Translations under genes and position numbers: made by a program
Shown here: one piece after another, positions 4,038 to 60,300 of the stretch
How positions within the stretch are numbered: position 1 is the stretch's first letter
How the letters are laid out: each line of letters starts with the position of its first letter
Notes under the pieces: generated by a model
What the model was told of the DNA's origin: nothing
Database searches by the model: none
Seen by the model: the letters and a program-made list of their open reading frames with translations, nothing else
Assembly (NCBI GenBank): GCA_964016885.1
Contig: OZ024740.1
Location: 250,852,001-250,916,000 of the forward strand
Length of the DNA: 64,000 nucleotides
From: Eledone cirrhosa
Taxonomy: Eukaryota
Reading direction: 5' to 3'

Positions 4038-4378
4038 AGAGGGAAGTGCTCTCTTCCCAGCATTTTGTTGAAAGATGGGTGAGAGAAGCAAGTATGGCCC
4101 GAATGAATGGGCCTTCTCTGAGTATGTGTCTGTAAATTAAAGGTGGAAAACTGGGAGAGGGCACTTGCCCTGGTGGTCAGGGCCACTGTGGTCTTTTAAT
4201 GGGCTTTCTCCACAAATGTCCCTTGGAAGTCTCCCCCCTATTGGGGAATTTTTCTTTGTTATTTTATTTCAACCTCTGTTTTTTTTACACGCAGAAATGC
4301 CCATTTGTACCGTCCTGTATTGTCCTGTACTGTCCTTAATGTCTACTTTATGGGAACCCTTGTGGTTAATAAAGAAAA

Positions 4379-4380
<2 letters not shown>

Positions 4381-4417
<37 letters not shown>
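4381..4417. repeat. (TTA)n microsatellite at a Tx1/R4 tail-to-tail junction
   Basis: Direct reading. Confidence 0.97.
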
Positions 4418-4575
4418 AGTTGCATTTATCTTGCTTTATGTTCATACGAGTTATCACCAAGTCACAACCAGTGACCTCAAGAGACAACAAGGTCCGCCAT
4501 GTTCAAGAAAGAACATACATATTCACACATCCATCTTTAGTGTTTAGACTTGTGATGTACTTATATTGACAGAAT

Positions 4576-5709
4576 CTACCTTAGTATATGGGCAGTTCTC
4601 ATTAGTACTATCTTTTGTATTTCTCCTATACGCGGGTTTCCTGGGATTTGCGATATGTAATCATTAGACCCCTTAGGTATCATTCCCAGAGCGCCTACAA
4701 CCACTGGTATTGTTTTAGTTCTCAATTTCCACAATTTTCCAATTTCTATCTCCAGGTCCTTATACTTGCTCAATTTTTCAAATGTTTTTATAGATACATT
4801 CTTGTCTATTGGAACAGACATATCAATTAGCAGGCATACCCTCTTTTGAAAGTCTTTCAATATTATATCAGGTCTGTTTGCATCTATTTTTCGGTCTGTT
4901 TGGATGCTAAAGTTCCCCAAGATTGAGATGTGATCTTTTTCAAGTATGGGAGGTGGTTGATGCTCCCACCAATTCTTTTGATGGGGCAGGTCAAAATGCT
5001 TACATATTATCCAATGTATGTATTGTGCAGCTCTGCCATGCCTGTTTAGGTATTTGGTTGGAGCTATAGGACTGCACATTGAAATTATATGGTCAATGGT
5101 CTCTGGTTGTTTTTTGCATACACGGCATAATGGGCTGCACCCATTTTTTATTATGTTGGCTTGGTAATTTTTTGTTGGCAGACACTGATCTTGTGTCGAT
5201 ATAATCAGTCCTTCAGTCTCCGATTTCAGTCCAGAGGATGCCAACCACTGATGGGTTAAAGTTTTGTCAACATCAGGATTGTTAGCTCGCTCTGGGTATT
5301 TTCCATACAGAGGCTTTTCTTGCCATTTCTTAGCCAGTTTCTGTAGCAGTTCTTTCTTTGCAGTTACTTTTACCTGCTTTGCTTTTTCTGTGTTTTCCAT
5401 TTCAGCAGTAAATGGAACTTCTGAAATTTGTAGTCCATTACTGTATCTTTGTGCATCTTTTGTAATGGAATATGATCTTTTGATGCTTTCGTGTTTCAAA
5501 ACGAGTTTGATCATCCAATCATGTGATTCCCTTAGATATGTAGATAATCCAATTGTTGCAGTTTTCAACGCAATGTCTAACTGGATTAACCCACGTCCTC
5601 CTTCTTTCCTAGGGAGATATATTCTATCTATATCTGCTTTAGGGTGATGCATTCTGTGCATGGTTAAGAATTTTCGAATTTTTCTCTGTGCTTGACCAGT
5701 TGATGACAT
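4576..5709 (-). pseudogene. R4/Dong C-terminal CCHC finger + restriction-like endonuclease
   Basis: CRVC...ETIDHIISMC, RH, RPDII...IDMSVP...K..KYKDL, PVVVGALG. Confidence 0.92.
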
Positions 5710-6598
5710 TGTAACTGTAGGTTACTACTGGTATGGCAAGCGTGTTTATGGCATCGATCCTATTCCTTGCATTCAATTCCGTTTTTAAGATTGCTCTCAC
5801 CCTGCGGTAACATTCCTTCCTTATCCTTTCCCTCATTGTCGAGTGCTTGATTCCGTCTCCTTCAGAAACACCTAGATATTTGTAATTTTTTTCTTGATCA
5901 AATTCTCTTATCACGTTCCCCCGATCAAGATTAATGTCTGAACTCTTCAGCAGCTTTCCTCTGGTGAACGTTGCTTTGGCGCATTTATCTAGTCCAAACT
6001 CCATTTTAATGTCATCACTGAACTGCTTCACAGTGGATAATAGCCTTTGCAATTGTTCATCATTTTTTGCAAATAGTTTCAGGTCATCCATGTAGAACAG
6101 GTGACTAATGGTTTTGTCATAGACTTTATATCCATGTTTTGTTTCATTGAGCATTTTACTTAATGGTATAAGTGCGATGCAGAATAAAAGCGGTGATAAA
6201 GAGTCACCCTGAAAAATTCCACACTTAATATTAACTTCTCCAGCTTCCAGTGATTTTGTTTCACTATTCAAAAGGAGTGTCGTTTTCCATGTCTTCATAC
6301 TGAATGACAAAAACCTCCTGACAAGGGGGGATACTTTGAAAATCTCTAAACATTTTTCAATCCAACTGTGTGGCAAACTATCGAATGCTTTTTTATAATC
6401 TATCCAAGCAATCGATAGATTTTTGTGTCTATTATGACAATCTTCCAGTATCATTTTGTTAACCAGAAGCTGATCCTTACAGCCATATGAGCCTCGTTTA
6501 CACCCTTTCTGCTCAATGGGAAATAGGTCATTTGTTATCAGGTGGTCATATGTGTATTCAGTTAGGACTGATGTTAAAATTTTATACATTGTGGTCAA
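5639..6598 (-). pseudogene. R4/Dong reverse transcriptase domain
   Basis: EQKGCKRGSYGCKDQL, WIDYKKAFDS, GIFQGDSLSPLLF, HLFYMDDLKL, FGLDKC, YKYLG. Confidence 0.92.
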
Positions 6599-9315
6599 GC
6601 AAGTTATCGGTCTGTAATTTTTGGGATTGTTTGTCTCATCATTCTTCGGAAGCAGGAATGTAATGCCGTTAACTAGCCATGAAGGTATCTTTTCTGGCTC
6701 CTTAACTATTTCATTGTAAAGTTGGGCTAACAGCTCATGAGACTCTGTGAAGGCATTTATCCAAAAGTTTTGTATTTTGTCTTTTCCTGGGGATTTCCAT
6801 TTGCTGGTTTTTCTGCCAAGCGCAACTGTTCAACTGTTATATTTTCCCATGTTTGTTTCTCAAGGTGAGCTGTATCTTTCATTTGTCTGTCTATCCATGG
6901 GGCATGTATGTTATGAACTTTTTCTTCGGCCCAGATCTTTTCCCAGAATTCTTGCACTTCCTCCTTGGGTGGTATTGATTTAGCAGTTATTGTTGACTTA
7001 CCAATTTTTCTGTAGAAGTTTCTTTGGTTGTTTTTGAACATATTATTGTCCTTATAGAATCTAGATCATTTTTCAAAGCGCCTTATACGAGCAGCTTTGG
7101 CCGACACTTTTTGCTTGATTATTTCTATCAGCATATCTATGTCACTTGTTGATTTTATACTGTACTTTTTTTTCAATTTTCTAAGTTTAGTTTGTTTAAC
7201 ATGTTCACCTACTTTATAGTTTGTTAAAATTTCTATGTCAGATCGGAGAAGGTTTATTTGGCGATTGATGTTCTCTTGCCAAGTAGATTTCTTGTGGGAA
7301 TTCCTTTGTTTTTTCATCTTCACTCCACATAAGTGAGTGGTGACTTTAGCCGATGCATAATAGAGATGATTTAAATCAGTAATGTTTGGTTTGTTTGTGA
7401 TGATAATGTTTTTGAGAATTATGTTAGTCTTGTGTATTATCTTTTGGTTCTGTTTGGAGTTCTGGATCTTAGGGAGGGTGTCTCGTTGCCCCATGTCAGA
7501 TTCTTTCATTTTCATCCATTCGATCATAATTTCATCCTTCAAGTTGGCAAGTTCATTCTCATTCATTTCTTTATCATTTACGATCTCCTTATTTTCATTT
7601 GGAGTTTCATCTTGAGCATGCACTCCCTCCACTTTTTCGATCCTTTCTTTAATTTGTCAGTGATTCCGCCCCAACCCTGGGATTCGAAGTGTTACAATTT
7701 ACCTCGTTTTCACTGACACATGTTTCATTTTCCCTTCGCTGACTTTGTGCTAATAGCTTGATCTGATCAATTTCTATATCAGTTAATAACTTTTTTCTTA
7801 CAATATTTCTTCGTATATTGGCTAGTTTGTTACTGTCAATATAGCCTCTGTTTTCGGGATGTTTCTTTTTCCAGTTGATATATGTCTGTTCTGTATTCGA
7901 TGTATTTGATGGGTAGTACATGGCAGTGTAGAAAGCCTCAAGGACTTCTTTATTATTTTCCCTTGACCATTTTTCTCTCTTTTTCTTTGGATTTCTTGGT
8001 GGTGAGCATGGAGGGCCAACAGTAGGAGTATTCCGGTTATGGGAGGTCTCCAGCTCCGAAGTGATGGGAAGGTTTGAACCATTAGCTGATTTTTCGACCC
8101 CAGTCTGGTTCCTCTCTGAGGGACGCGGCCCTTTTTTACCCGGGTGACGGCCGATCCGGTATGAGATTTTATCATTAGACATTTACTTTATTTTGTCGCG
8201 TTTTATCCTTATCCGCCAAGGGGTAATCATTTCGTGTTACCACTTCTAGAACGAGTGTCAACCAAGACTAGAGGGGTCGTTCTCCCCTAGAGACACGGCT
8301 ATTCCCCGCCGGCCGCCATCCCGGTATTTCTTGGTCACGGGTTTTCTTTTTGTTGTTTTTTTTTTAAATTGTTATTATCATGAGTGGTTCCTTAATGTGA
8401 GCATTGCGTGGCTTAAGAATGAAATTATTAATAATTGTCTCCACTCCAGGCACAAGGCCAGCAATCACCCAGTGCATTACAATAATATAATATACTTTTT
8501 GCTGAAGTTGCCTGTTATTGTTGTTGGCTATGTCGGTGGTGGTGCTGGGGATTTTTATATTGTTGGTGAGGAAGGGGGGAGCCAGCAGTGCCATATTTGT
8601 TGACGTTTGGCCGGTGGCCAGGTCACTAAGTCAATCTATTTATATCTTTTGCTAGCCTCTCCCTTGTCTAGTGATACCGCCACCTTCCCCTTTCTTAAGT
8701 TAACAGGGGAATAGTGGTGGTAGCAATGAAGGAGTGGTGGCGGCGGTGATGGGATAGTGGTAGCAATGATGGATGGAATGGTGGCGGCGGTGGCGTTGTC
8801 GTTACTGAGTTTTGTGATATGTAGTATCTATGAGTTTGTGTCGCGTATGTTTAATATATATTGTGTTGACATATTCCCGTAAAATTGGAATTAAACATTT
8901 TGTTAAAACTTGAGACAATAATAATAGTAATTATTATTATGATGCTGGGATTGGTGGTGGTGGTGGTGAAATTGCCGTTATCTGGCTGTTATATTTAGTG
9001 TGATGGGGTAGGTGGTGTATCAAGTTTCTGGTGTTGGTGAAATTGCTGTTATTTGGCTGTTCTATATACTGTAGACAGAGGGTGTTTTCTTCCATTTATA
9101 ACCATTTTCTTTTTTGAATAGAAAATATATAATACAAAATTGAATATTTGAGCGATATAACAATATAATATGGATCCGAAATTTTATGGGACTTGATTCG
9201 GTGGTTTATGCATCATTTGTACTAATAATTGTTATTTCACAATTGATTTAAATATGTTAAAAATCAAAAACTTACGGGAGCGATTTCATGACCTTCTACC
9301 ACCACGTGCGTCTTC

Positions 9316-9318
<3 letters not shown>

Positions 9319-9368
<50 letters not shown>
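9319..9368. repeat. (TTA)n microsatellite between two tandem R4/Dong copies
   Basis: Direct reading. Confidence 0.97.
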
Positions 9369-10410
9369 AGTTGCATTTATGTTCATACGAGTTATACCCA
9401 AGTCACAACCAGTGACCTCAAGAGACAACAAGGTCCGCCATGTTCAGGAAAGAACACACATATACACACACATGCATCTTTAGGTGTTTAGACTTGTGAT
9501 GTACAGAATCTTCCTTAGTATATGGCATGTTTGTTCCTCAAGGTGAGCTGTATCTTTCATTTGTCTGTCTATCCATGGGGCATGTATGTTATGAACTTTT
9601 TCTTCGGCCCAGATCTTTTCCCAGAATTCTTGCACTTCCTCCTTGGGTGGTATTGATTTAGCAGTTATTGTTGACTTGCCAATTTTTCTGTAGAAGTTTC
9701 TTTGGTTGTTTTTGAACATATTATTATGCTTATAGAATCGAAATCGTTTTCCAAAGCGCCTTATACGAGCAGCTTTGGCCGATACTTTTTGCTTGATTAT
9801 TTCTATCAGCATGTCTATGTCACTTGTTGATTTTATACTGTATTTTCTTTTCAATTTTCTAAGTTTAGTTTGTTTAACATGTTCACCTACTTTGTAGTTT
9901 GTTAAAATTTCTATGTCAGATCGGAGAAGGTTTATTTGGCGATTGATGTTCTCTTGCCAAGTAGGTTTCTTGTGGGAATTCCTTTGTTTTTTCATTTTCA
10001 CTCCACATAAGTGAGTGGTGACTTTAGCCGATGCATAATAGAGATGATTTAGATCAGTAATGTTTAGTTTGTTTGTATTGATAATGTTTTTGAGAATTAT
10101 GTTAGTCTTGTGTATTATCTTTTGGTTCTGTTTGGAGTTCTGGATCTTAGGGAGGGTGTCTCGTCTGGATCTTAGGGAGGGTGTCTCGTTCCAATTGCTG
10201 TTATCTGGCTGTTGTATTTAGTGTACACAGAGGGGTGGTAGGATAGGTGGTGTATTTAGGTTGTGGTGGTGGTGAAATTGCTGTTATCTAGCTGTTCTAT
10301 ATAGTGTAGACAGAGGGGGTTTTCTTCCATTTATAACCATTTTCCTTTTTGAATATAAAATTTATAATACAAAATTGAATATTTGAGCGATATAACAGGA
10401 TTTTATGGGT
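9369..10410 (-). mobile_element. Internally deleted second copy of the same R4/Dong element
   Basis: Near-identical to 4418-4594, 6848-7487 and about 8970-9190, joined together; RT and RLE are absent. Confidence 0.88.
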
Positions 10411-10419
10411 CTTCATTTC

Positions 10420-13400
10420 CTGGGGGCTAAGCCTGGTGCCTTATGTCACTAAGAGAAGGAGATGGCAGTCGCAAGGGCCATGGTGACAAGAAGCGCCAAT
10501 AGAGTCTCCCTGAAACCTCCACCCGATTTTTTCAAGGACCAACAGCTACGGACGGTGACTTACCGCACCGTAAGCAAAATGCCACGGAGCCTCAAATCCA
10601 AAAGACCTTGGGGTGCGTCTAGGCACGCAAAAACCCACATCACTAGAGGCAGAAAGTACGCCACAGTAGACGTACTTTTCGCCAACCCCCAAGAAGCGAA
10701 GTCTCACTCTTTGGAAACTCTAAAGAGTAAGGAGATAGTCTTGGTGCCCTCCTACTGCGGGCAGAAAATTGTGAGGGTTAAAGTGACCCAGGTCCCACCC
10801 GACGTGCCCATACATTGGCTGGCCGCGTCTGTCCTTGCTGGAATCGAGGACTGGACGACCATGCTGCAAGTAGAGAAAATAGGGAGAGAGAAATGCTTAT
10901 ACAAACTGACCAGGAATGTATCGACGCTATCCCCGATATCATAGACGTCGAGGAAGGACTCCAACTCCCTATAAGCGTAGAAGGAAGACGGCCAAAATGT
11001 TATCTCTGTCGGTCAAAGGGTCACCTCAGGGCCTTTTGCCCGCAGAAGACAGCGAAGAAGAAGGCCCCTCTCCTTCGGTGAGTAGGAGGGCAACGTCCGT
11101 GACACCCGTACCAAGGCCACGGACAACTAAAGCAGCAGCATCAGTGGCGGCAACACCAGTAGCTACTACATTTGCAGTAGCTGCACCAGCAACAAAATTG
11201 CCGGAGAGGGCTCTACTACCACCACCAACAGCCGTGGAGCACATACCCATCCCAGACGCCACGGAATCCGACATGGAGTTTGAGGCGGGAGAGTAGTGGA
11301 AAACGGTCTGCCACAAAAACAAAAAACAAAAAAACTCTTAGCTTCGCCCTCCAAAAGCGAAGGCACACAAAGAGGGGTAAAGGCAGCAAGGAAACTTGCA
11401 CTAACACCACCACTATCACCATCACCACCACAAGCACCACCGCCAACATTACCAAAAACACCAACAGCGCAAACAAAACAAAACACACACACCAAACAGC
11501 AACAAAATCACCCCTCCCCGCAAAAGTACACAGCCATAAACATGACAAAAAAAGAACTCATACAACATATAAAGCAGCACACAGACATCACAGAAAAAAA
11601 CTACTACACCCCACCAACACCAAGAACTCTCCCGACAAACATAAGCATCATTGAAATATCAATAGAACAGTACACACTTTTAAAACAAAAATTCCCCAAC
11701 GCAGTTGGAGACTTCAGAGGGTCGGTTACCAAGAGGATATACACTGACATCCTCTTGGAAACACCAATGACCAGCCAAAGGGACGGTTCTACTGTCCCTT
11801 CACCACACTATCAAGGTAAGTGACCCTTTCTCACTTGCCCCGTTTCTCATCCAATATGGCCGTACTCAGAATAGGCAGTATAAATGCACGTGGCCTGGGG
11901 TGTTCTTGGAAGCAGGGTCACCTGCTCAACGACCTCAGGTCACTAAACATAGATGTGGTGGCCATCAGCGAGACCAGAATCTCCGAAGCACAAGCCTTCG
12001 CACCGATCTTCGGCGGCTACGATGTATACGCATCTCCCAGCCGTCCCGGATCGGGGGAGGGGGGGGGGGGCGTCCTTTTTCGGAGAGGCTTGGATCTCGC
12101 CATACGGGCCATCTTCCTAGACCCAGAAGGTAAGTCGGTGGTGCTGGACGTGACCGGCACCGAAGACAACGCTTTCAGGCTAGTAGCCGCCTATGCCCCG
12201 GCAGGGACAGGACGGCCAGATTTCTTTAGACATCTAGAGACCTTTCTTGGAACGTCCCGCTCTTTAGTGTTAGTGGGCGACTGGAACGGTATCTTGCATG
12301 CACGCTGGGATTGTGTGAGGCTAGTGTATAGGGGAGGAGGGTGCAAGAGGCTCACTAACCTGCTCAGACGTTTTGAACTGTCTGACAGGTATCGACTGGA
12401 TCACCCGAATGTGCCAATGTGGTCATTGACAAACCGCATCGGGTCATCCAGATCGTATCTCGATAGGGTATTCTGCAGGGAACTAGATAAGGCTAGTATA
12501 AGTTGTCCACAATTTAAAATAGTCGACTACACAGACCACAAATTTGTGATCTGTGAGATCGACATAGACAGACTTCATACACCAGAGCCCGGTTACTGGA
12601 AGCTGAACGCGTCTTTCCCGGCGCGCAAAGCCTAGAGAGACCGGATTGGCGTATTAGTTAAGCGGGCGTTGACGGGAGCGGTCGACAACAACAGATGGTG
12701 GTTCGCCCTGAAAAGGGCAATTAAAGTAAAGTCGATTAGGTTTAGCAAAGGACTTAGTGATAGAGGAAAATAGAGTAGAGGGAGAGCTAGTCAGAAAGCT
12801 AGAAGATGCGTTTAGGACAGGCACCGCAACCGACGTGCTTGCGGCGAGATTGGCACTCGACCAATTCTTCAACGCAAAACACGAAGGCTGCGTTGTCAGA
12901 GCTAGAGCGCGTGCTCTGAAACACGAGGGGACCAAAAGCCGTCCAATGGGCACGGGTGGCAGAGGCCCGACGTGGCAACAAAACCACAATTCGGTCTTTA
13001 TCTGACCAAAACGGGCGCGTGTTGCTCGAATCCGAGCAGATGTGTGAAGCTTATCAGCAGCACTCTGCTGAACTGTTCGGGAGCAGCAGCGGGCCGGATC
13101 GGGGTATGGACTTCAGTGCATACCTCGACGGACTGCTTCGACCCTCGACGACCGCAGTACAGTGTTGCGAAAAGCCAATAACAGCCGGTGAAATACGGGA
13201 AGCGATGGCTAACTGCAAGAGGGGTAAATCGCCAGGTTTAGATGGTCTGCCCTACGAGATTTATGCATTTATGCCAGACTTGTTCGGTGACCTCTTGGCA
13301 GACGTCTACTGCAAGTGGCAGCAGAACGGGAGCATTCCCAGTTTTGTGAGCTGGGGAGCGGTGGCGCTGCTGAGAAAAGACCCAAACAAGGGGATGTTAT

Positions 13401-15470
13401 CGATAACTTCAGGCCCATAACCCTGCTAAACGCAGAGTTCAAGATTTCGGCCAAGGTGTTAGCAACGAGGTTGGCGCTTGTCGTCAAGGGTTGGTGGGGG
13501 AGGCGCAGACATGCGCCATTCCGGACAGATCCATAACAGACAACCTCTACCTCATGCGATACATCATAGAGAGGGTGGTTAAAAACCTGGCACGAGTGGG
13601 GCCCTGATCAACTTGGATGAATCCAAAGCATTCGATAGGTTCGACCATCGGTACCTGGCGGCGGTCCTCGAGGCAGCCGGTTTCGGGCCTGTTTTCTGGG
13701 GTTGGATCGCTGCGATGTACAGCGACATCTGCTCAGTTGTGACGGTGAACGGTCTCCTGTTGCAGCCGTTCAGCATCATGCGCTCGGTCCGCCAGGGTTG
13801 TCCACTCTCGTCCCTCTTGTACGTATTGTCTCTCATGCCGTTACTGCAAAAAACTGGGGGAGATGAGGGGCGTCCCAACTGAACTAGGATGCGGGAAATC
13901 CGAATCGGCTTACGCCGACGACGTCACCGTGGTGGTGTCGAGCATCAGACGCGTCCAGATGCTTGGCACCGCTCTCAAGGAATACGAAGCGGTGACAGGA
14001 GCAAAGATAAACCAGGAAAAGTCGATGGGCTTGCAGCTGGGCACCTGGAGAGGCAAGTCCATGTCGTCCAACAGCGTCGTAGAGCGTTGGACTGGAGCGA
14101 GGTGACGAGAAATGGGCCGAGGGGAAGCTGTCCCTGAAAGGCCGGGTGGAGGTGGCGAATGCATACATCGCATCCGTCATCTGCTACCGCCTCACCGTCG
14201 CCCCTTGCCCCGGCCCAACTCTCACCAAAATTGAGCGCCTCTTCTTCCGGTTTTTGTGGAATGGACGCGCTCCCATGGTCAGACGATCCATCTGCTGTTT
14301 ACACCCGTTGCGTGGAGGACTGGACATGCCATCGTTGATGATGCGCAAACATGCGCTGAGGCTGCGACATCTCTGGTGCTTCCTTGACGGTGAACAGGTG
14401 TGGTCGCCGTTCGCCAGGCACGTTTTCCCACAGCTCGTCTCCTTGACGGAGCTGCAGTCCTGGGATAATGGGATAGACCGAGGTATAGTTCTTGGAAACT
14501 GGAATGTCTCCAGGCGCTCACCGCCCTCTGTCAGCTGGGCACCAGTATCGGTAGAACATCCACCTCGGCGTTCTATAGAGGACTAGTGGGGGGGCGACGA
14601 CGTTCTCGGAGAGATCCTGGGCGTCGAAGCAGATTAGCTCTTTGCTCTCTTCCGGAGAACTTTCAGCCCAGGGCCTATGGATAACTTCCCAAAATCCCTG
14701 GCCTGGGAGCGCTGCTGGTTCGAGATAAGCTCTACAGGCACGGAAGTGCCGTCAACCGAGCCTGTCCAAGATGCGCGCAGAGCGACGAAACCGTCGTGCA
14801 GGCACTCATTCAGTGCCCGAGCATTGCTGACTTGTGGAGCTATGTCGAACAGTTACTGTCGCGTGTAGGACTGATCCGGTTATCCACTGAGTCCATTGTG
14901 CAGATGGTCTCGCCGTCTTCCTTCCAGGAGGAAGGGCAGGCGGTTTTCATCTGCCTGGTGGCCATGGTGAAAGAGATTGTGTGGTGGACAAGGTTGAAAG
15001 GGTCAAAGACAGATACTTTCCTCTTCGGAGAATCCCTAATTAACTTTTTCAAGTTTCACTTGAAGAGGAAAATCAGGGTGGAGAGGCAAGTGCTGCCTTC
15101 TAGCAAGTTTGTTGAAAGGTGGGTGAATGTAGCGAGAATGGTCCGAGTGAACGGGACCGCTCTGAATATACGTCTGTAGTTTGAGAAATGGAAAAATTGA
15201 GAGAGGGTGCTTGCTCTGGTGGTCTGGGTGGCCGTGGTCTTTTGTGTGGTTTTCGCCACTAGTAACCCTCGCAGGTTTCCCCCATATTGGGGAATTTTTC
15301 ATTGTTTCAATTTTCATTTTTATTGTTTATATATATATGTTTCTATGTGTTTTTTTCTTTTCTTATATAAATAATAAAAATATTTACACGCAAAAAACCC
15401 ACATCGTACCGTCCTGTGCCATCTGTAATGTTTTTCTTGATGTCAGCCCTTGTGGCCAATAAATAAATCA
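10420..15470 (+). mobile_element. Tx1 copy B (divergent ORF1), degraded ORF1 + ORF2
   Basis: ORF1 with knuckle RRPKCYLCRSKGHLRAFCP; APE at 11820-12635; RT fragments with QGCPLS and YADD; zinc finger; 3' end AATAAATAAATCA then (TTA)n. Confidence 0.9.
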
Positions 15471-15599
15471 TTATTATTATTATTATTATTACTATTATTA
15501 CTATGTAGTGTGCATATTGGTATTATACGCAAATATATATGCATATAGATATATATAAATTGAAAAGTAAATTGACAATATCCTCTTCTTCGCCCACTT

Positions 15600-18514: not shown

Positions 18515-18863
18515 CACATAATCACTCTATCTATCTGTATCTCTCTCATCACACACTCTCTCTTTCTAGCTCTATCTATATATATGGTAGTTGAAGTGGT
18601 GGTGGTGGCGATATACAGGTAGTGAAGAAATTTGAAACTTTTAAAAGAAGTCAATTTTAAATAAGGAATAAAATTATTCATATTTAATCAAGAGTTACGA
18701 AATTTAGTACATAAATTATGTAATATTCATTCATTATTTATTCAAAGTAGAACAATTATTTATTCAAAGTAATCCAATTTATTTTGCAAACAGGATAAAA
18801 AGATATATTCTGGATGCAGTTCCGCACTCCTCCCTTTATTATAGTATAGATTATTATTATTAT

Positions 18864-21800
18864 TGGCTGTTAGACAGTGTAGACGTCTTTTTAGAGCTCC
18901 GCAAAAGTGGTAAATTTTCTGTTTATTTACATTTATAATAATGTTGTATTCTTTGAAAAGGGTCGTAAGACTTCCGTCTTTGGCCTGTGAAGGGGTGACT
19001 GTCTAATATTTGGGCATTTTGGCTCAAATATTTGAACTTTATGAAAAAAAAAATTCTCGAATAAAAAAAAAATGGCTGAGCCACGCCCCTCATCTTTAAG
19101 TCAGCTGTCGTGTGACAGCGGGTTAGACGTTGAGAGGAGGGATACGGCAAATACAATAATTTATACTACAAACACATTTAGCAACACCCCCACAAACAAC
19201 ATGAACAACTACAGCAACAACAACAGTAGTGAGAAAAATAACCTTTAAAAAAACGACAACACAAACCACAGCAGTAACAGCGACAACCAAAATAATGATT
19301 TCTAGTATAGGCATAAAGCAAGTAATTTGGGGGAAGAGGAAAGTCGATTAAATCGACCCCAGTACGTTACTGGTACTTTACTTTACCCACCCCCGTAAGG
19401 ATGAAAGGCAAAGTTAACCTCGGTGGGATTTAAACTCAGACCGTAAAGGGCCGTAACTCTATGCTGCAAAGCATGGTGTCCGACTCTCTACTGATACTGC
19501 CAATCCACCGACAACAGAAAATAATGACAACAAAAACAACAACGAAATTAATACCACTAAAAAGAACATAAACAGCGACAGCACCAACAGCAACAATACC
19601 AACTGCACCGAGAACAACAACAACACCAACAAGAACAACGACGACACTAACAACAAAGGCAACACTAACAACAACGACAACACCAATAATAACAACAACA
19701 AGAACGACAACACCAACAACAATATAGTCAACGAAAAACAGCAAAACAGCAACAACAAAAAGAACAACAGCATCAACAAAAAGAGTACTTTCGCGGCCAC
19801 AGTAGCAAAGAGTCAAACGCTGAACGATTTCGACCTAAGAGAGAAAAAAGAACGTTTGGCCCCGACGGAAAAATTTATAACAAGAGAGAAAAGCTGGACC
19901 AATTTAAATGCCAGAGGTAATGGCAGCAAAGGAGAAGAGGACTTTAAAATATCGATGCATTTCGGTCAAATCTCGAAACGCCGAGAATGCTTCCGAAGGA
20001 CAGGTAGAGGCAGCGCTGAAATGCATCGATAATGATCACATAGGGCCAAACAATTTGGGAGCATCTTGGTGCTTTTCAAAACTGATGCCCTTGCTATAAA
20101 GCATTCTGTGGTCTCCTGCAAAACGGACCAAATCATTTTGACCCCGTCCTACATGGGGAGAACAGTAAGGGTCCGTGTTCCCAGGATTCCACTTGGACTG
20201 GATTTATGGTGGCTCCTGGGATGCGTGTAGGTAGAGGGCACTGACACCCTCCTCGACGATAAATTTACAAAGAGAGAGAGGTGGTCGGGGACTGGTTTGG
20301 AGCTAGTAGCTAAGTTAGACGAGGCTATTTGATGTGGCATTGCAACTGACGTGCTAGCGGCGAGAATGACATTAGACCATTTCTTCAATGAGAAACACGA
20401 AGGTTGCATTGTCAGAGCTAAGGCGCGTGCTCTGAGAAACGAAGGAACCAAAGCTGTTCGATGGGCCCGCGTGGCAGAGGCGCAGCGTGGTAACAAAACC
20501 ACAATTCGGTTTTTGACGGACCGAGACGGACACGATCTGAGCGATTCCCGGCGGATGTGTGAGGCTTTTCGCCAGCATTTTGCTTTGTTGTTCGGGGGGG
20601 AAATGCCGGGTCAGAGACGGTGGTGGACTTCAGTCCCTACCTCGATGGCTTGCCGCAACTCTCGATGGCCGACGCTGAGCGCTGCGAAAGGCTGATATCT
20701 TTAGCCCAAATTCAGGATGTCCTTGTCGGCTGCACGAGGCATAAGTCACCCGGTTTGGATGGAGAGCTTTACGTAAATATGCTAGACTTGTTCTCCGATA
20801 TCCTCGAAGCGCTCTACTGCAACTGGCAGCAGAACGGGAGTATTCCCAGTTCTGTGAGCCGGGGAGTAGTAATACTGATGAGGAAAGACGAGAACAAGAG
20901 GGACACATTAGATAATTTCATGCCCATAACTCGGCTCAACACGGAGTTTAAGATGTTGGCCAAGGTCTTAGCGAAGAAGCTGGCGCTTCTCGTCGAGGAT
21001 TGGGGAGGCGCAAACTAGTGCAATCCCGACCAGGTCCATACACGACAATCTCCACCTCATGCAATACATCATTGGGAGGGTAGGGTGTAAACCTGGGAAC
21101 TGGTAAAGTTGTTCGGGGTTTAGTTCGGGCCAGACTTCCAGGTGGATAAGAATTGGGACGAGGTGATGGGGAGGGTAGCCAGTTTCACCCAGAAAGGGGC
21201 TGTGAGGAAGCTATCACTGAAAGGTCGGGCGGATGTGGTGAACGCGTACATCGCGCCCGTCATCTACTACTGCCTGACCGTCATCCCTTGCCTCCGTCCG
21301 CGCCTCGCCAACTTGGAACAGCTCCTCTTCAAATTCTTATGGAGAGGACAGGTTCCGTTGGTGAGGTGGTCCATCTGCTGCCACCACTCTCTACGTGGAA
21401 GACTGGGAATGCCGTGGCTAATGATGCGCAGACATGCGCTGACGCTGCGGCATCTCCAGATACTCTGCTTAAACGGTGGACAGGTGTGGTCGCCGTTTGT
21501 CAGACGGAGGTTTCCGCAGCTCGTCTCTTTGATTGAGCTGCAGTCCTGGGTTAAGAAGAGACCAAGACTGTATGACTGGCATCTGGAATGTTACCAGGTA
21601 GTCACTGTCCTCTAACAGGCGGGCAATGGGGTCAGTGGAACTTCCACTCTCGAGTTCTATAGAGAATTAGTCGTGGGCAAGTGCGACGACACACGCGGAG
21701 AGGCTCTGGGCGTCGACGAAGTCGAACTAACCAGTCTGTTCCAAAGGACTTTCGAGCCGGGGACCATGGATAACTTCCAAAAATCCCTCGCTTGGCAGTG

Positions 21801-22040
21801 CTACCGGGGGGGGGGGGGACACTGCCAGTTCGAGATAAACTCTACAGGCACGGAAGTGCTGTAGACGGACCCGCCTGAGTGCAGAACGACGAAACCGTAC
21901 TGCATGCACTCGTCCAGTGTCCGTGCATTACTGACTTATGGAGTTATGTGGAGCCGCTGTTGTCACGTGTAGCATGGATCGGGCTACCGGCCGAGTCCAT
22001 AGTGAAGAACGACTCGCCGCCTTCTTTTGGCCAGGAGGGG
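18864..22040 (+). mobile_element. Tx1 copy C (second subfamily): 5' end present, large internal deletions, SINE inserted
   Basis: Begins GGC directly after (TTA)n; low-complexity Thr/Asn-rich ORF1 start; ORF1 remnant at 19908; ORF2 fragments 20351-22030 match copy F. Confidence 0.8.
19341..19504 (-). mobile_element. tRNA-derived SINE
   Basis: Reverse complement of the family consensus (B-box-like GAGTTYAAATCCC, core GCCTTTCATCCTTACGGGG...GTACCAGTA). Confidence 0.8.
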
Positions 22041-26910: not shown

Positions 26911-27303
26911 ATTATCATTATTTCCATTATTATGTTTATTGCACATCATTACTGCTTTACAGAGCACAGCTCTGTGCACCTTGGGTATGAGTAGTGTAGT
27001 TTTTGCTGATGTCGTTTCTATTTTATTGATAATACTTTTCTTAATATGTGTACAGTTGCCTAGTAGTGATATCTTTTGTATGCTGTATATATTTGTAACC
27101 CCTGGGCTTTTGGCTATGTATTTGTCTATCATTCCGAGAGTATCTTTAGGTATTGTTTCTGCTTTCATTTTCCACATTCGAGTTATTTCTATCTCTAGAC
27201 CTTTATATTTGGAGAGTTTCTCTATTTCCTTGGAAGATATATTGTCGTCTGTGGGGATTGATACATCTATTAGAAGGCATTTTGTTCTATGTGGTCTTTT
27301 ACT

Positions 27304-27484
27304 ATAATTGTTTCTACTTTTGGCACAAGGCCAGCAATTACCCAGAGCATTACTGGTACTTTATTTTATCGACCCCGTAAGGATGAAAGGCAAAGTTAAC
27401 TCGGCGAGATTTGAACTCAGAATGGCAAGGGCCGTAACTCTATACGTCAAAGCATGGCATCCCACCCTCTACCGATACTGCCAA
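27304..27484 (-). mobile_element. tRNA-derived SINE
   Basis: Full match to the family consensus ending TGTGCCAAAAGTAGAAACAATTAT. Confidence 0.85.
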
Positions 27485-29854: not shown

Positions 29855-30199
29855 ATTTAGATCATTATCATTTGTGTTGGCTTTGGTGCTGCTGTATTTT
29901 CCCTTAAGTTCAAAGAACGAACGTCTGTACAACTGTATTTTGTGTTTATTTTTCGTTGTGTTTATAATACAGCATTTGTAATACAATCAGTAAATTTTGT
30001 TACTTCTGTGTTTCGATATACCAACGGTTTCCATTTCAAACTCTGTGTGATATTATGGCTAATTTTTAAGTTGTTGCATTTTACTCACGTGGTCGCAATT
30101 TTAATAAAGAAAATTATGTTGTAAGGACGATCTATTGTGTTTCCCCTTCGTTTTCTTAGTATATTTATTATTGTTTTGTTGATGGTGTCCGATTAAAAT

Positions 30200-46254: not shown

Positions 46255-47537
46255 ATATAATTTCCCTTTAAGGATTTTTCTTATATTATTAAACTGTATA
46301 AATCATGTTGAATATACATTATCAATCCATTTGGATAGAACAACATTATTTACGAAGAATGTAAACAAAGGAGGATAACTCGTTCAACTAGTGATCATTT
46401 ATGATATTTAAGTGCTTTGAAAGCCAAAAGATATTTCAAACCGCAAATTCAGAAATTTCTAGTTATACAATGACCATTCTAAATCCGAACTTAGGATACT
46501 GAGTCTCATCATGAGATTAATTTACTATATAAAAACGATATACAATTTTTAAGGTAAGGCAAAACATTATATATATATATAATAATAATAATATTATTTC
46601 AAGAATTATTAATAATAGTCAATATTTTTTCTTCATAGTCAGTATTTTTTTCTAAATTTGTATAATGCTTGAAATGTTTTTCCAGACTTATGTAGACAAG
46701 TTCCGAATAACTCTTTTTTCTTATTAATTAAATTACCATAATTGATAATTATTAATAGAGTTTCCAAATTGCAAAGATTGCAATTTGGTGAAATAGAAGC
46801 GTTCCGATAGGAATCAGAATACTTTAGTTTACTCCAAGAAATTGAGTATTTAATATTTTTCTCTTTTAAAGACCATATTAATTGTGAAAATGAAGTAGAC
46901 ATTTTTTTAATCTGGATTAGAGAAAGAATGTTTGTGATTGGAAAAGCGAAACTTAAAGTTTGATGAAGTGGCACCTATGTAGTTATAAGTATTATTATTA
47001 TTTGTCTTAATGGTACATTTATATACTAAATTCTTGTCTAGGCAATTATTTTGTAAAGGGCATTCAGATTTCCTTCTACAGTTACAGTTCAATTCCATGT
47101 TACTTCTATAACCTAAACTATTCGTATTATCATTATTATTTCTAGGTGTTCTACTATTATTCATATTTAAACTATTGTTATTGTTATTCACATTAACTAA
47201 TGTATTATTATTAATATTGTTATTATCGCTAATTATATGCTGGTTCAAATTAAGAATTTTGCTATAAATTTTTGCAATATTTTGAGCAACATTCATAGTT
47301 GTTGAGTAAGAGAGTTTAACTGTGTATCTATTGAAGATACAGTAATACTTATGTAATCTAAGGAAACATTTATCCAAGACTTTAAAAAATAAATGTGCTA
47401 AAGGTGTTTTAATAGCTAAAGATGCTGGTGGAGCATACCAAATTATAGATCTAGTCCTAATTTTTTCCCCCGATTTATTCCTCAAGTTATTATTTTTACA
47501 GTCAGTTTTATTTTTATTATTATTATGGGTGGTGGAT

Positions 47538-47715
47538 TGGTAGTATCGGTAGAGGGTCGCACGCTATGCTTTGCAACATAGTTACGTCCCTTTACGGACT
47601 GAGTTCAAATCCCGCCGAGGTTAACTTTGCCTTTTATCCTTACAGGGTCGATAAAATAAAGTACCAGTAATGCACTGTGTAATTGCTGGCCTTGTGCCAA
47701 AAGTAGAAACAATTA
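47538..47715 (+). mobile_element. tRNA-derived SINE inserted in the Penelope ORF
   Basis: Family consensus, flanked by (TTA)-rich sequence. Confidence 0.85.
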
Positions 47716-48083
47716 TTATTATTATGAATATTGTGTTTATAATTAATATTATTTTTTTCTACATATTCAATGTCATTTTTATACCCTGCTTTATTTAACG
47801 CCTCATCCAGCTTTACTATTAAAAATGGATCTATTAGCAGATAGTCTGGATATTCGTTGTTGGACACTTTTAGGATGATTAGAGTAAAAGCTAACATAAT
47901 TTAGGTTTTCATTGAGTTTATGGAAGGGGTAATATAGGCCTGAGTTTATAAACCACCGGTAATCTCCGGCAGTTTTCTATTTATTTGCAAAAGATATTAA
48001 AAAAGTTCATGGTATTTAATTGGTCGCTTCTATTTGACTTAATATTTGAAAACAACGGTCCCGCATCATTTCTCTTCCTTCCT

Positions 48084-51380: not shown

Positions 51381-51456
51381 CTCTCCTTTGTTCTGTCCTA
51401 CGCCATGGCGTAGGACAGAACAAAGGAAAGGCACAAAACAAAGAAAAGAATCCCCA

Positions 51457-53799: not shown

Positions 53800-56700
53800 T
53801 CCTCAAGACGTGGCAACACAACGTGAAACCCACATCGAGACTTTTAAAGGGGTTCCCGAAAGAGACAGCCACCAACCATGGAGGTCGAACCAGATCTTCG
53901 CATCTGTTAGCAGGCCGGGAATGGGAGGTGGGGTAGCAGTGTTGTTTAGGAAAGGTCTGGATCTCGAGGTATGGTCGTTCTTCCGGGACCCGCACGGTAA
54001 GTTTGTGGTCCTGGATATGAGCAGTAGCGAAAGTGGTGCCTTTAGACTGCTGCCCGTCTACGCCCCTACTGGGGTCGGACAACCGTACTTCTTTAGGTGC
54101 CTAGAAACCTCTCTGGGTGCGTCTCGCCCGCTACTGTTGGCGCGGGACTGGAACGGCATCTTAGACGCACGCTGGGATTGTGTAGGAGTAGCTGATAGGA
54201 GCGCGGGAGGGGGGGGGGCAAAAGCCTCAAACACCTAATCAGCCAGTTCCAACTGTTTGACAGGTATCGACTAGATTTCCCCAAATGCGCCAGTGTGGAC
54301 GTGGACCAACCGCATAGGGTCATCTAGATCGTATATAGACAGGATCTTCATTAGGAAAATAGATAGAAATAGTTTAGGCTGCCCAATTTTTAAAACGGTC
54401 GCCTATTCAGATTACAACTTTGTGATCTGTATAGTCGATCTAGGTAAAACACGTAGGTTGGGATCTGGTTACTGGAAGCTGAACATGTCATTTCCGGCAG
54501 GTAAGGCTTACAGGGACTGAGTCAACACTTTCTTTAGCAAAAGTTGACATCAACAACAGATGGTCGTGGGCTCTCAAAAGAGAAATTAGAGTAACTTCGA
54601 TAGAGTTCAGCAAAGAACTAGCGTTAGAGAAAAATAGAAAGGAGGCGGAGCTGGTAGATAAGTTAGACGAGGCTATTTGTAGTGGCATTGCAACTGACGT
54701 GCTAGCGGCGAGAATGGCATTAGACCATTTCTTCAATGCGAAACACGAAGGTTGCATTGTCAGAGCTAAGGCGCGTGCGCTGAGAAACGAGGCAACCAAA
54801 GCTGTTCGATGGGCCCGCGTGGCGGAGGCACAGCGTGGTAATAAATCCACAATTCGGGCTTTGGTGGACCGAGACGGACACGAGATAAGCGATTCCAAGC
54901 GGATGTGTGAGGCCTTTCGCCAGCACTTCGATTGTTCGGGGAGTGTGGCGAGTCATAGAGAGTAGTAGATTTCAGTCCCTACATTGACGGCTTGCCACGC
55001 ATCTCGACGGTCGACGCTGAGCGCTGCGAAAGGCCGATTACTTCAGCCGAAATTCAGGACGCTCTTGTCGGCTGCATGAGGCGCAAGTCACCCGGTTTGG
55101 ATGGCCTGCCCTATGAGCTTTACGTAAATGTGCCAGACTTGTTCTCCGATTTCCTCGAAGCGCTGTATTGCAACTGGCAGCAGAACGGGGGTATTCCCAG
55201 TTCTGTGAGCCGGGGAGTGGTGACGCTGATAAGGAAAGACGAGAACAAGAGGGATACATTAGACAATTTCAGGCCCATAACTCTGCTCAACACAGAGTCT
55301 AATATTTTGGCGTGGGTGTTAGCGAAGAGGTTGGCGTTTGTCGTCGAGGATTTGGTTGGGAAGGCGCAAACTTGCGCAGTCCCAGTCAGATCCATACCCG
55401 ACAATCTCCACCTCATGCGATACATCATAGAGAGGGTAGGGTGTAAACCTGGCTTCGGTGGGGCACTGATCAATTTAGATTCGATAGGGTCGACCCTCGG
55501 TACCTGGAGGCTGTCCTCAAAGCAGCTGGCTTCGGCCCTGTCTTCAGAAGCTGGATCGCTGCAATGCACAGTGGCACATGCTCGGTGGTCAAGGTTAATG
55601 ACCACCTCTCGGTGGGTTTGGTTCGGGCCAGACCTCCAGGTGAATAAGAATTGGGACGAGGTAATGAGCCGGGTAGCCATTCTCACCCAAAAATGGGCTG
55701 GAAGGAAGCTATCACTGAAAGGTCACGCGGAGGTGGCGAATGCGTACATCGCGTCCGTCATCTACTACCGCCCGACCATCGTGCCTTGCCCCCGTCTGCG
55801 CCTCGTAAAGTTGGAACGGCTCCTCCTCAAATTCTTGTGGAGAGGACAATTTCCGTTGGTGAGGCGGTTCATCTGCTGCCAGCACCCTCTACGCGGAGGG
55901 ATGGGCAGGCCGTGCCTAATGATGCGCAGACATGCGCTGAGGCTGCAACATCTCCAGATATTCTGCCTAAACGGTGAACAGGTGTGGTCGCCGTTTATCA
56001 GACGGGCCCTTCCGCAGCTCGTTTCTTTGACTGAGCTGCAGTCCTAGGTCAAGAAGAGACCGGCAGCTGGAATGTTGCCAGGCACTCACTGCCCTCTACC
56101 AAGCGGGCAATGGGATCAGTGAAACTTCCACTCTCGAGTTCTATAGAGGATTAGTGGTGGGCAAGTGCGATGTCGGACTCGGAGAGACTTTGGGCCTTGA
56201 CGAAGTCGAACTAACCAGTTTGTTCTGGAGGACTTTCGAGCCGGGGACGATGGACAAATTCCAGAAATCCCTCGCTTGACAGTGCTACCCGGAGCACTGC
56301 CGGTTCGGGATAAACTCTACAGGCACAGAAGTGCTGTCAGACGGACCTGCCCAAGATGCGCACAGAGCGACGAAACCGTTCTGCACGCACTTGCTCAATG
56401 TCCGCGTATTACTGGCTTGTGGAGTTATGTCGAACAGCTACTGTCGCGTGTAGAACGGATCTGGCTATCGGCCGAGTCCATAGTGAAGATCGACCCGCCG
56501 CCTTCCTTAGGTCAAGAAGAGCAGGCAATTTTCCTCTGTCTGGTGGCAGTTGCGAAAGAGGTTATATGGTGGACCAGATTGAAAGGACTGAAGACAGATA
56601 CTTTTCTCTTCGGCCAATCCCTCATCTACTTTTTCAAGTTTCACCTGGAGAGAGAAGTGCCCCCCCCCCCCCAGTACATTTGCTAAAAGGTGGATGAATG

Positions 56701-57024
56701 TGGCGAGAATGGCCCGTGTGAATGGGCCTACTCTGACCATGCGCCTATAGGCTACCTAATTTGAGGAGAGGGATGCTCTCCCTGGGTGCCCTAGAAGCGC
56801 AGGGTGGTTCAGGATTGGTGGGGTACCTGAGTCACCCCTGGGTCGCCCACCCACTATAGGGGAATTTATTTTGTTATACTTATACATAGTTTATTTTATA
56901 TTTGTATATCTTCAGTGTTAAATTAGTGTTGCCATTGTGCACTTTACTCGACCTTATTGTAAACACCCACTGTCCCTGTCTTTGTATTGTACCCTACATT
57001 GGCTCTTGTGGCCAATAAATGAAA

Positions 57025-57027
<3 letters not shown>
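53800..57027 (+). mobile_element. Tx1 copy F (subfamily of copy C), ORF2 only, RT core deleted
   Basis: APE fragments; KSPGLDGLPYE, FRPITLLN; jump over the QG/YADD region near 55610; zinc finger CPRC; ends AATAAATGAAATCA then (TTA)n. Confidence 0.88.

Positions 57028-57080
<53 letters not shown>
57028..57080. repeat. (TTA)n microsatellite
   Basis: Direct reading. Confidence 0.97.
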
Positions 57081-57342
57081 GTTCTTTGAGTCTCAGTCAT
57101 TGATGTTAGTTAACTGGAAAGTTTGTTGAAATGAATATCAAGCCACTACCTGCAACCTCAGATATTCAGGACGTATCGGAGGGTTCTTGCTGTTCCCAGC
57201 AAGCATGCGTTTTGAAGAGTTCCAAAAAGCGGGGCGGGGCCAATTTTCGTTAACCATCCCTGGAAACTTTTTGAGATAGTACCTAGTGCGCCTATGAAAA
57301 TCGGGACCACTTTGACATCACGGCAGTTCCAAATCCTTTACC
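57081..57342 (-). mobile_element. 5'-truncated R4/Dong-type 3' end, with (TAA)n on both sides
   Basis: Manual translation: RIWNCRDVKVVPIFIGALGTISKSFQGWLTKIGPAPLFGTLQNACLLGTARTLRYVLNI*. Confidence 0.85.
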
Positions 57343-57356
57343 TATTATTATTATTG

Positions 57357-60300
57357 GCGACCTACCTAGTAAATCGTATCATCGTGAGCTCCGCAAAGGT
57401 TTATTTTCAGTTGTTTAAAATTGCCATTCATGGAAAATTTTTATTGTTAACTGTATGTTTATTGTTAACTGTGCTATACATTGTTATCTGAAAAGGACAC
57501 CCAAAAAGATTGGGGCCTTGAGCCCAAAATTTAAACATTTATAATTGTCAAACAAAGATTTTTCTTTGTAAAATCATGGCTGACTCAGAGTCACTCCTTT
57601 CTCACAAACTAAAACCTCACACCGACACCACCATTGTAAATATTACTAAATATATAAGCAGTAGCAATATTTTAAATTTGTCTCAGGCAGACATTCATTT
57701 CCCGCCATTACCAATGACTGCAGGTGTTAAAGCCGCCACCACCACCACCGCGACAACCACCACCCCCACCACCACCACCGCGACAACAGAAACAAAAGAA
57801 TAAAATAAATTAACTCGTGATATCGAAATGAATTCAACCAAATGAACTCTTCCACACCGAACACCACTGACGCCACCACCACCACAACTGAAACTATAAT
57901 TAATAATAACGAAAATAACGATAACAACAACAGCAACAATGACATTAAGAAAACCACCCTGAGCTTTGCCAGAGTAGCAAAACAGTAACTCAGGAGGAAT
58001 TAGAAGCCAAAAAAATGGTAAAGAAAGATGGGTACAGGGTCAGCCTCACCACCCCCACCTAATAAAATGGAGCATCGGCGCCTATGCACCGTGTCTATCG
58101 AACAATTAATATAAAATCGCGCCGAGTGGAACGGGCATCCGAGTCCCAAATACAAAAAGCTTTGGGACATGTGTGGGCAAAAAACCCCCACATCAGACGT
58201 GGGCAGAAATATGTAACCGTGGACGTGTTCTTTGAAACACCACAGGAGGCTAGAGAACACTCCATGGCCCCATTAAGAAGTGACGACTTCACACTCGTCC
58301 CAAGCTATTGTGGCCAGAGACTCGTAAAGATCAGGGTGACCCACGTTCCACCGGCCATCGAAATTCCCTGGCTAATAGCTGCCGTCCTCGCCGGCATCGA
58401 AGCCAACACCAAGATAATCGAAATAGCAAAAGAAAAGCAGGAGAACTGGTCCGGATCTGGGATGGAGCTCCTGATCCGAGCGGACCAAAATAGCATTGAG
58501 GAGATCCCAGAGGTAATAGACTTCACTGACGGCAGCCACCTCACCGTAATTGTCGAAGGCAGAAGGCCTAGGTGTGTCGTTTGTGGTGAACGAACCCACC
58601 TAAGGGCTTTCTGCCCTCAGGCTAAAAGGTTGAGGCCACCTCTCCTACAGCAGAGATGGCAGCAACAACTGTAGCAGCAACAACAGAAGCAACTGTAACA
58701 GCAACAACCCGAGCAACAGTAGCAAAACCAACACCACCACCACCCAACGCGCCAGAACTAGCACCAGCGCCTACACCATCCACCACGCCACAACCAAAAC
58801 CAACGCCTGTGGAGGATTTTCCACTCCCCAGCCAATCACAACTGGAGACAGATTGTGACGACGAGGAGTGGGAAACGGTATCAGGAAAAAAGAAAAAAAG
58901 AAACCAAAAAAGAAAAAAATTCTCTTCCTTCCCCCTCCAAAAACAAAATACAGAAGGAAACAAATAAACTTTCAAACAAAAAAGTTAGGACAGATATGCC
59001 ACCATCCACACCAGCATCACCAACCCCATCACCCCAAACACCAACACCATCACCATCATTAACCCAAACACCACCCTCACCTACACCACAGAAGTCACCA
59101 AAAAGCGAAACAGAAACAAACCCACAACAGACGCAAAGAAAACAAAACAACCAAAACGATACACACTACACAACATTAAATTTGAATTGGCATTATCGGT
59201 AGAGGGTCAGACGCCATGTTTTCCAGCATAGTTACGTCCCTTTACGATCTGAGTTCAAATCCCGCTGAGGTTGACTTTGCCTTTCATCCTTACGGGGTCG
59301 ATAAAATAAAAGTACCAGTAATGCACTGGTTATTGCTGGCCTTGTGCCTAAAGTAGAAATAATCATAATTGAACAACAACCAATTATTACACTACATCCA
59401 ACACAACACCAGCATCACAGAAAAAGACTACACAACAACCCAAAAGTTCACACCACCTCCACATACACAAATCACTCGCATCACACAGAAAACGTACACG
59501 ACACTAAAGCAAAAACTCCCCAAAGACATCGGAGACCTCCGACAAACACTCTCCAGGAGGATTTATACGGACATCCATCCGGAGGAGGCCACAAGCAGTG
59601 GCCACCTGCTCAACGACCTCAGGTCACTAAACATAGATGTAGTGGCCATCAGCGAGACCAGAATCTCCGAAGCACGGGCCTTCACACCGATTTTCGGCGG
59701 CTACGATGTGTACGCATCTCCCAGCCGTCCTGGATCGGGGGGAGGAGTTGCTGTGCTTTTTCGGAGAGGTTTGGATCTCGTCATACGGGCCTTCTTCCTG
59801 GACCGAGAAGGTAAGTTGGTGGTCCTGGACGTGACCAACGGAGACGGGCAAGCTTTCAGGCAAGTGGCCGTCTATGCCCTGACAGGAGCAGGGCGGCCTG
59901 ATTTCTTCCGACGTCTGGAGACTTTTCTTGGAACGTCCCGCTCTTTGGTGTTAGTGGGCGACTGGAACGGGATCTTAGATGCACGCTGGGACTGTGTGGG
60001 ATCAGCGGATAGGGGATGAGGGTGCAAGAGCCTCACCATCCTGCTCAGGCGTTTTGAACTGTCTGACAGGTACCGATTGGATTTCCCGAATGTGCCAATG
60101 TGGAGTTGGACAAATCGCATAGGGTCATCCAGATCATATCTAGATAGAGTATTTTGTAGGGAAATAGATAGGTCTAGCATAGGCTGTCCACAATTCAAGA
60201 TAGTCAGCTACACGGACCACAAATTCGTGATCTGTGTGCTTGACTTAGATAGGCTTCATAGACAGGGACCCAGCTACTGGAAGCTAAACGCGTCCTTACC

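Follow-up and report, generated by a model that had tools for sequence, protein, structure and literature searches.

Analysis of a 64,000-nt stretch of DNA (contig OZ024740.1, positions 250,852,001 to 250,916,000; hereafter the window) and of the genome it belongs to revealed that a Tx1-type long interspersed nuclear element (LINE) is almost certainly targeted to (TTA)n microsatellites. This Tx1 lineage and several R4/Dong-like LINE families probably insert in the same repeats, in fixed opposite orientations, by nicking opposite strands and duplicating the target. A sister lineage of Tx1 in (TATC)n repeats and a short interspersed nuclear element (SINE) are additions to an earlier note, which had been made from the letters of the window.

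(TTA)n repeats as a target of the Tx1 element

At the 3' end of the Tx1 element, 30 of the 30 best copies enter ATT repeats and none carries poly(A). At the 5' end, (ATT)n lies directly upstream of the 30 best full-length heads (30/30) and of all 26 further heads, which were reached from the 3' end, and the junction reads ATTATT/G at 75 of 76 heads, belonging to five head types. The repeat was also found directly upstream of 28 of 52 5' junctions other than heads, drawn from three TTA subfamilies (7/13, 8/18 and 13/21), the criterion being at least 8 of 9 matches to ATT, which is reached by 0.65% of 61,360 random positions. In this count, 21 of the 60 loci of subfamilies B and C were left out since they ran past the fetched DNA, and one of the 28 positives is a near-complete head. 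In raw reads from a single run, which do not depend on the assembly, the Tx1 tail passes into ATT repeats (4,541 reads), and a joint of tail, (ATT)7 and truncated copy is present (114 reads). Since (ATT)n precedes full-length copies and many truncated ones, TTA is a target and not merely the tail.

Regarding the length of the runs, at least four perfect TTA units stand upstream of 69 of 72 heads, and the genome's most frequent runs, by a wide margin, are those of two units (555 versus 44 three-unit runs). Unselected DNA was sampled as 40 stretches of 10 kb at even spacing, picked blind (400 kb in total); of its 26 perfect runs of (ATT)5 or longer, 17 abut Tx1 or R4 elements, two abut the SINE and seven are free. 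The runs upstream and downstream of full-length copies did not differ in length (medians of 14 and 10 units, p 0.10), so no net addition by the tail is demonstrated.

Alternatively, (TTA)n could be only the element's own tail, and the clusters could have been formed by passive accumulation, recombination and segmental duplication. In fact, 11 of 30 heads follow another Tx1 tail, duplicated junctions exist (an R4 break point left of the window; L124 and L125) and five Tx1 pieces of the window lack TTA. Nevertheless, this explanation is contradicted by the 28 copies that are broken at many positions and still preceded by (ATT)n; moreover, many heads follow ATT runs in unique DNA, and the sister lineage has its own repeat at both ends. 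We regard an origin of the pattern without targeting as highly improbable.

Anatomy, age and abundance of the Tx1 family

An intact copy (L106) has a length of 5,892 bp and two open reading frames (ORFs), which encode 661 aa (ORF1) and 1,139 aa (ORF2). Pfam identified in its ORF2 the domains Exo_endo_phos (apurinic/apyrimidinic endonuclease type, APE), RVT_1 (reverse transcriptase, RT) and zf-RVT, and the window ORF 783-4037 encodes an APE, an RT and a zinc knuckle. ORF1 of L106 presents a C-x2-C-x4-H-x4-C motif, seen by eye and not reported by Pfam. L1 endonucleases are the best solved-structure matches of the APE, whose catalytic residues are retained in the family.

A search of 3.0 Gb of genome with the 3' untranslated region (UTR) gave 1,241 candidates; the best 40 are 99-100% identical, so the family is young. 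Tx1-like sequence covers 8.6% of the unselected 400 kb, the SINE 1.9% and R4-like sequence 1.4%. Part of the Tx1 element is present in 20 public runs with 16 organism codes, at least half of its words in 7, and no RNA dataset is among the public runs listed as containing it. The closest named protein is from Argonauta hians (73% identity), and the protein search also gave relatives at 40-45% identity. The metagenome scan found distant relatives only (24-42% on the best segment), and the Atlas search only unnamed APE-RT clusters.

The heads are diverse. Otherwise unlike Tx1 heads have in common a block, GAGCTC or GCTC, with a GTAAG-like word after it, 25-45 nt from the start (window 18894-18915 and 57386-57405; L027, L006, L135, L212 and L393), without an Rfam match; we assume that it resembles a splice donor or a promoter element. 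In L117 (2112-8180), L114 and L227, an ORF2 96% identical to that of L106 follows, at one common junction, another 5' UTR and another ORF1 (about 52% aa identity), which is a modular exchange of heads. A stable tail structure is unsupported, as five 3' ends had z-scores near zero when folded.

R4/Dong-like elements in the opposite orientation

The minus-strand ORF 8182-4576 of the window encodes RVT_1 and a weak zf-RVT according to Pfam, and no APE. It also presents an RPD..D..K motif, which we take to be that of a restriction-like endonuclease. Its relatives are RT proteins of about 1,200 aa, and its C-terminal part gave no solved-structure match. The label R4/Dong-like is provisional and follows the anatomy and the target, as no named Dong protein was among the matches. 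The 3' ends of these elements abut the run in 29 of 30 cases and their truncation points in 12 of 14 (by eye), five 5' ends also adjoin (TAA)n, and TAA is on the sense strand. The 5' UTR of R4 family 1 contains 50 nt of the SINE tail (window 8431-8480), as does that of the copy right of the window.

In five anchored sets of loci, all 37 Tx1-R4 contacts are opposite in orientation, and parallel contacts number 23 between Tx1 copies and 12 between R4 copies. In the unselected DNA, the expected direction was observed at 9 of 9 Tx1 contacts and 10 of 12 R4 contacts. Two seemingly opposite Tx1 contacts were rejected, as they were SINE matches within a reference.

The window itself displays the same arrangement. 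Its Tx1 3' ends read AATAAA, 5-6 nt and C before the ATT repeats, which begin at 4380, 15470, 26911 (degenerate) and 57027. Both Tx1 heads, at 18865 and 57356, start with GG immediately 3' of (ATT)n and have GAGCTCCGCAAA in common, at 18894 and 57386. The R4 3' ends adjoin repeat runs at 4417, about 26935, 57081 and 9368, and the R4 left ends adjoin TTA at 9317 and 57343. Protein matches are all on the plus strand for Tx1 and all on the minus strand for R4. The earlier note had described these four 3' ends, the two heads, the tail-to-tail contacts and the strand split, and all were recovered, the tails within one base and the heads one base off the positions given. Its two proposals, a (TTA)n-specific Tx1 family and opposite orientations of Tx1 and R4 in the repeats, are supported genome-wide: the 5' flanks are not random and all 37 Tx1-R4 contacts of the anchored sets are opposite.

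A sister lineage in (TATC)n

Tx1 copies ending in (TATC)n were first met in the blind stretches. This lineage is young, with best matches 98-100% identical, and it forms tandem arrays of its own (L208, L369:1-5388, L311-L340 and L386-L405); ORF2 is intact in L369, L370, L371 and L378. TATC repeats precede 9 of 11 of its heads. At its truncation points, TATC stands upstream in 9 of 18 cases and ATT in none, compared with TATC at 0 of 52 junctions in the TTA lineages (Fisher p 7.5e-7 for TATC and 1.6e-5 for ATT); 12 of 30 loci were left out because they ran off the DNA, and two pairs of loci are not independent. Two of 30 tails of this lineage start with (TC)n. A stretch proposed as its head was rejected as internal ORF1, the real head being elsewhere.

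A quick RT tree places all subfamilies in a single clade together with the Argonauta protein (support 100), and TTA subfamily B is the sister of the TATC lineage in quick RT trees (99 in one and 98 in the other). As the TATC lineage is nested among TTA families, TTA is likely the ancestral target and TATC the derived one, and the sister lineage likely switched its target to (TATC)n. Between the TTA and TATC lineages the RT is about 75% identical and the endonuclease about 60%, with the catalytic residues kept. In the hairpin-loop region of the endonuclease, 32 copies with ATT tails have WTWTNRIGSSRSY and 11 copies with TATC tails have WSWSNRSGSSRSY, without cross-over between the two groups. 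The accessible text of a study on L1 and Tx1L endonucleases describes that grafting the hairpin loop alters the nicking preference of L1 (PMC1950540). Since the match between loop and target represents one evolutionary event, it is a lead only.

A SINE with a Tx1-like tail

Copies of the SINE (for example window 47506-47723) are abundant; their tail ends in ATT repeats, and they have short duplications that start with ATTAT. Over its last 40 nt the SINE is similar to Tx1 tails (shuffle p 0.001-0.018) but not to R4 tails (p 0.98-1.0), and beside LINEs it mostly has the orientation of Tx1. In the blind stretches its sites begin with ATTAT and are seldom long repeats (by eye). Mobilisation by Tx1 is plausible and unproven, judging by this tail likeness; the SINE is a possible partner of Tx1 and a possible source of new ATT targets, and another LINE could also be its partner.

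Target duplication and proposed insertion mechanism

Target-primed reverse transcription is the established basis for reading the phases of insertion junctions. Here these phases are fixed. They agree with nicking of the A-rich strand at AAT/AAT by Tx1 and of the T-rich strand at TTA/TTA by R4. The Tx1 APE would nick the T-A step of 5'-AAT/AAT-3'; the 3' end so released would pair with the read-through (AUU)n tail just past AATAAA and prime reverse transcription. The site of the second cut would be ATT/ATT, about 4-7 units from the first. The R4 nuclease would nick TTA/TTA on the T-rich strand and, since opposite strands are nicked, the two LINEs would lie in opposite orientations. As target bases are duplicated at each insertion, new sites for both LINEs are likely left behind. 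Polarised clusters could then be built by repeated insertion into these renewed runs, together with subsequent deletions and local duplications.

Duplications are readable at degenerate sites, with 11-12 bp in L123, 12 in L323, 16 in L317 and 19-20 in L337, so insertion copies target sequence. As these lengths correspond to 4-7 TTA units and nearly all heads follow at least four, the target would be regenerated if such runs suffice. The earlier note had claimed that each insertion duplicates target repeats and restores sites for both clades; the duplication is thus observed, and the restoration for both clades is what we infer from the run lengths.

The choice of site is probably led by the endonuclease and aided by the pairing of the tail. 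On the other hand, the RNA could choose the target: the enzyme would nick T-A steps loosely, only nicks that pair with the read-through repeat tail would prime, and the passage from TTA to TATC would be a change of the tail and not of the enzyme. This would agree with tails that contain the target repeat and no poly(A), with off-repeat sites that begin with ATT or TAT like the tail (L123 and L337) and with a SINE whose short ATTAT end uses loosely matching sites; a contribution of RNA-target pairing to site choice is also considered in the accessible text of Repanas et al. (PMC1950540). However, a few bases suffice to pair, and 69 of 72 heads nevertheless stand behind at least four units despite the excess of two-unit runs. 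Moreover, the same part of that paper reports that in vitro the Tx1L endonuclease nicks hardly any site but its own, and the hairpin loop tracks the target in all tail-scored copies, although this is a single evolutionary event. We therefore consider a choice by the RNA unlikely and keep to an endonuclease-led choice.

Several observations weigh against a shared, polarised (TTA)n target. The copies studied are the best-scoring matches and not a random draw, with a few loci recurring between groups. Upstream ATT is missing at 24 of 52 non-head junctions, which include rearranged and secondarily interrupted copies. In the window, only three of eight Tx1 pieces have TTA at the 5' edge, and those starting near 10450, 22049, 30199, 53890 and 62184 are joined directly to other sequence. 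Of the four clear duplications, three belong to the TATC lineage. Two of the 12 R4 contacts in unselected DNA have the unexpected direction (L218 and L222), and an inverted Tx1 tail faces a Tx1 tail at two loci (L147 and L166). Finally, one R4 break point is repeated exactly, both occurrences lying left of the window, and local duplication therefore accounts for part of the array. Many of the TTA-less Tx1 edges, in the window and genome-wide, may be due to subsequent deletions and insertions. In L218 (7680-8160), an R4 family 2 copy has its 5' segment inverted and still has ATT runs on both sides.

A broader reading would be a three-party, self-feeding system, in which Tx1, Dong/R4 and a Tx1-mobilised SINE fill and regenerate most long (TTA)n runs, with a recent switch to TATC driven by the endonuclease. 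It would imply that strand-polarised LINE clusters make up several percent of octopod genomes and that (TTA)n gave way to (TATC)n through a few endonuclease changes in or near the DNA-probing hairpin loop. We hold this reading as tentative and rather doubtful; if it is true, young intact copies of both target states would allow a direct test.

Layout of the window

For the context of the flanks, the window was extended by 30 kb to the left and 20 kb to the right. The first Tx1 copy is full length, and its head, which (ATT)n precedes, is found 1,489 bp beyond the left edge of the window. The polarised cluster begins at about -12 kb and reaches at least +84 kb, and the window contains at least three subfamilies each of Tx1 and R4. 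The region from 30.3 to 53.8 kb is mostly sequence outside the LINE array, so the array consists of two clusters; the polarity described in the earlier note stands. Features are listed in Table 1.

Table 1. Features of the window, with positions counted from its first letter
Feature	Position	Strand	Remarks
Tx1-type LINE, young subfamily A	1..4379	+	ORF1 end, ORF2 783-4037, 3' UTR; 97.6% identity to L106
(ATT)12 run, Tx1 tail on one side, R4 tail on the other	4380..4416	+	
R4/Dong-like LINE family 1, full length	4417..9316	-	frameshifted ORF 8182 to 4576
(TTA)17 run separating two tandem R4 copies	9317..9367	+	
R4 family 1 copy with internal deletions	9368..10411	-	
Older Tx1 copy, subfamily C tail	10450..15469	+	left edge approximate, without TTA
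(ATT)n run 3' of Tx1 tail	15470..15504	+	
(ATT)5 run 5' of Tx1 head	18850..18864	+	
Tx1 copy with head, internal deletion, 3' end missing	18865..22040	+	SINE inside, 19360-19535 (-)
Tx1 copy abutting the previous Tx1 without TTA	22049..26910	+	tail at 26910
Degenerate (ATT)n run	26911..26934	+	
Old R4-like copy, third family	26935..28536	-	tail-to-tail with Tx1; SINE inside, 27304-27484
Tx1 ORF2 scrap without TTA	30199..30290	+	
Divergent R4-like RT fragment	31716..32356	-	then (CTA)n run, 32468-32561
SINE with Tx1-like 3' end	47506..47723	+	ATT repeats on both sides
Tx1 copy, subfamily B	53894..57026	+	left edge without TTA
(ATT)18 run, Tx1 tail on one side, R4 tail on the other	57027..57080	+	
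R4-like family 2, 5'-truncated	57081..57342	-	TTA runs at both edges
(ATT)4 run 5' of Tx1 head	57343..57355	+	
Tx1 copy with head and deletions	57356..62183	+	SINE at 59183-59366
Tx1 3' half, joined without TTA	62184..64000	+	tail and (ATT)n just right of the window

The R4-like piece 31716-32356 adjoins (CTA)n and not TTA; with its (CTA)31 run, the region 31716-32561 possibly belongs to a (TAG)n-targeting family. The Rfam scan of the window gave a single tRNA-like match (53268-53332, minus strand), possibly the head of another SINE, and no ribozyme or RNA family at the Tx1 heads. The regions 30300-31400, 33450-35500 and 49560-51550 presumably hold decayed RT-bearing elements of other kinds, judging by motifs in their translations, and no association of these regions with TTA was seen.

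Implications

These results add two microsatellite targets to the Tx1 repertoire and indicate that APE-type and restriction-like LINEs converge on one repeat from opposite strands. As close TTA and TATC relatives with intact young ORF2s exist, the question of endonuclease versus RNA tail can be tested by domain swaps. The insertions are a possible cause of the transposable element (TE) hotspots and of the many long AAT microsatellites in octopod genomes, and AAT markers in these genomes should be used with caution, since they are often located at LINE ends.

Comparison with known systems

In a quick RT tree, the TTA/TATC lineage is sister (SH-aLRT, a Shimodaira-Hasegawa-like approximate likelihood ratio test, 89) to a clade with the U2-inserted element L251, and 5S-inserted elements are further out. 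Membership in Tx1 is suggested by the anatomy and by this kinship, in a tree that holds no named Tx1 or L1 references. ORF1 proteins carrying the domains RRM and zf-CCHC are connected with Tx1 in the available part of one report (PMC5203782). Keno, according to the accessible text of another, targets U2 (PMC4494074). Unlike the elements described here, the U2- and 5S-inserted relatives have poly(A) ends and are inserted in RNA genes, with 25-33% identity over ORF2. Such metagenome relatives, with a poly(A) end inside U2 snRNA or 5S rRNA genes, were confirmed by Rfam in L251 (5815-5977), L246 (5495-5618) and L254 (5892-6010). Another group (L277, L285, L293, L295, L299 and L310) has a common downstream site, TCCC after poly(A), which looked tRNA-like; Rfam gave nothing in the three tested.

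In octopus, L1-Tx1 and Dong-R4 elements are abundant or recently active and TE hotspots occur, and the main texts seen describe no insertion preference of these elements (PMC13282606, PMC8967140); the word 'target' is absent from the first and stands once, in a general sense, in the second. A telomere-specific Tx1 is cited from Repbase Reports in part of a further article (PMC10088271). A Tx1 targeting TTA or TATC, or a joint target of Tx1 and Dong, was not found in a literature search that did not cover Repbase, Repbase Reports or Kojima and Fujiwara 2004, so a prior description is possible. The accessible text on Tx1-Mar and SINEU reads their common target preference as pointing to trans-mobilisation (PMC4494074); in comparison, the SINE described here has a tail likeness of about 25 nt and a matching orientation, with a much looser site preference, and the partnership is suggested.

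The Tx1 microsatellite targets named in the accessible portions of two papers are (TC)n, (TTC)n, (TTCC)n and (TTTC)n, used by Kibi, Koshi and crocodilian families (PMC4494074, PMC3812793). Kibi and Koshi are likewise APE-type LINEs of the Tx1 clade in microsatellites, but the targets here are (TTA)n and (TATC)n and the host is likely an octopod and not a vertebrate; no named Kibi or Koshi protein was among the protein matches. Dong, DongAg and DongBg of the R4 clade target TAA microsatellites, and a snail member is known, as far as the available text goes (PMC3812793). The R4-like families described here resemble them in having TAA of the sense strand at both ends; they differ from Dong in having their target in common with an oppositely oriented APE-type element, and at least three such families are present.

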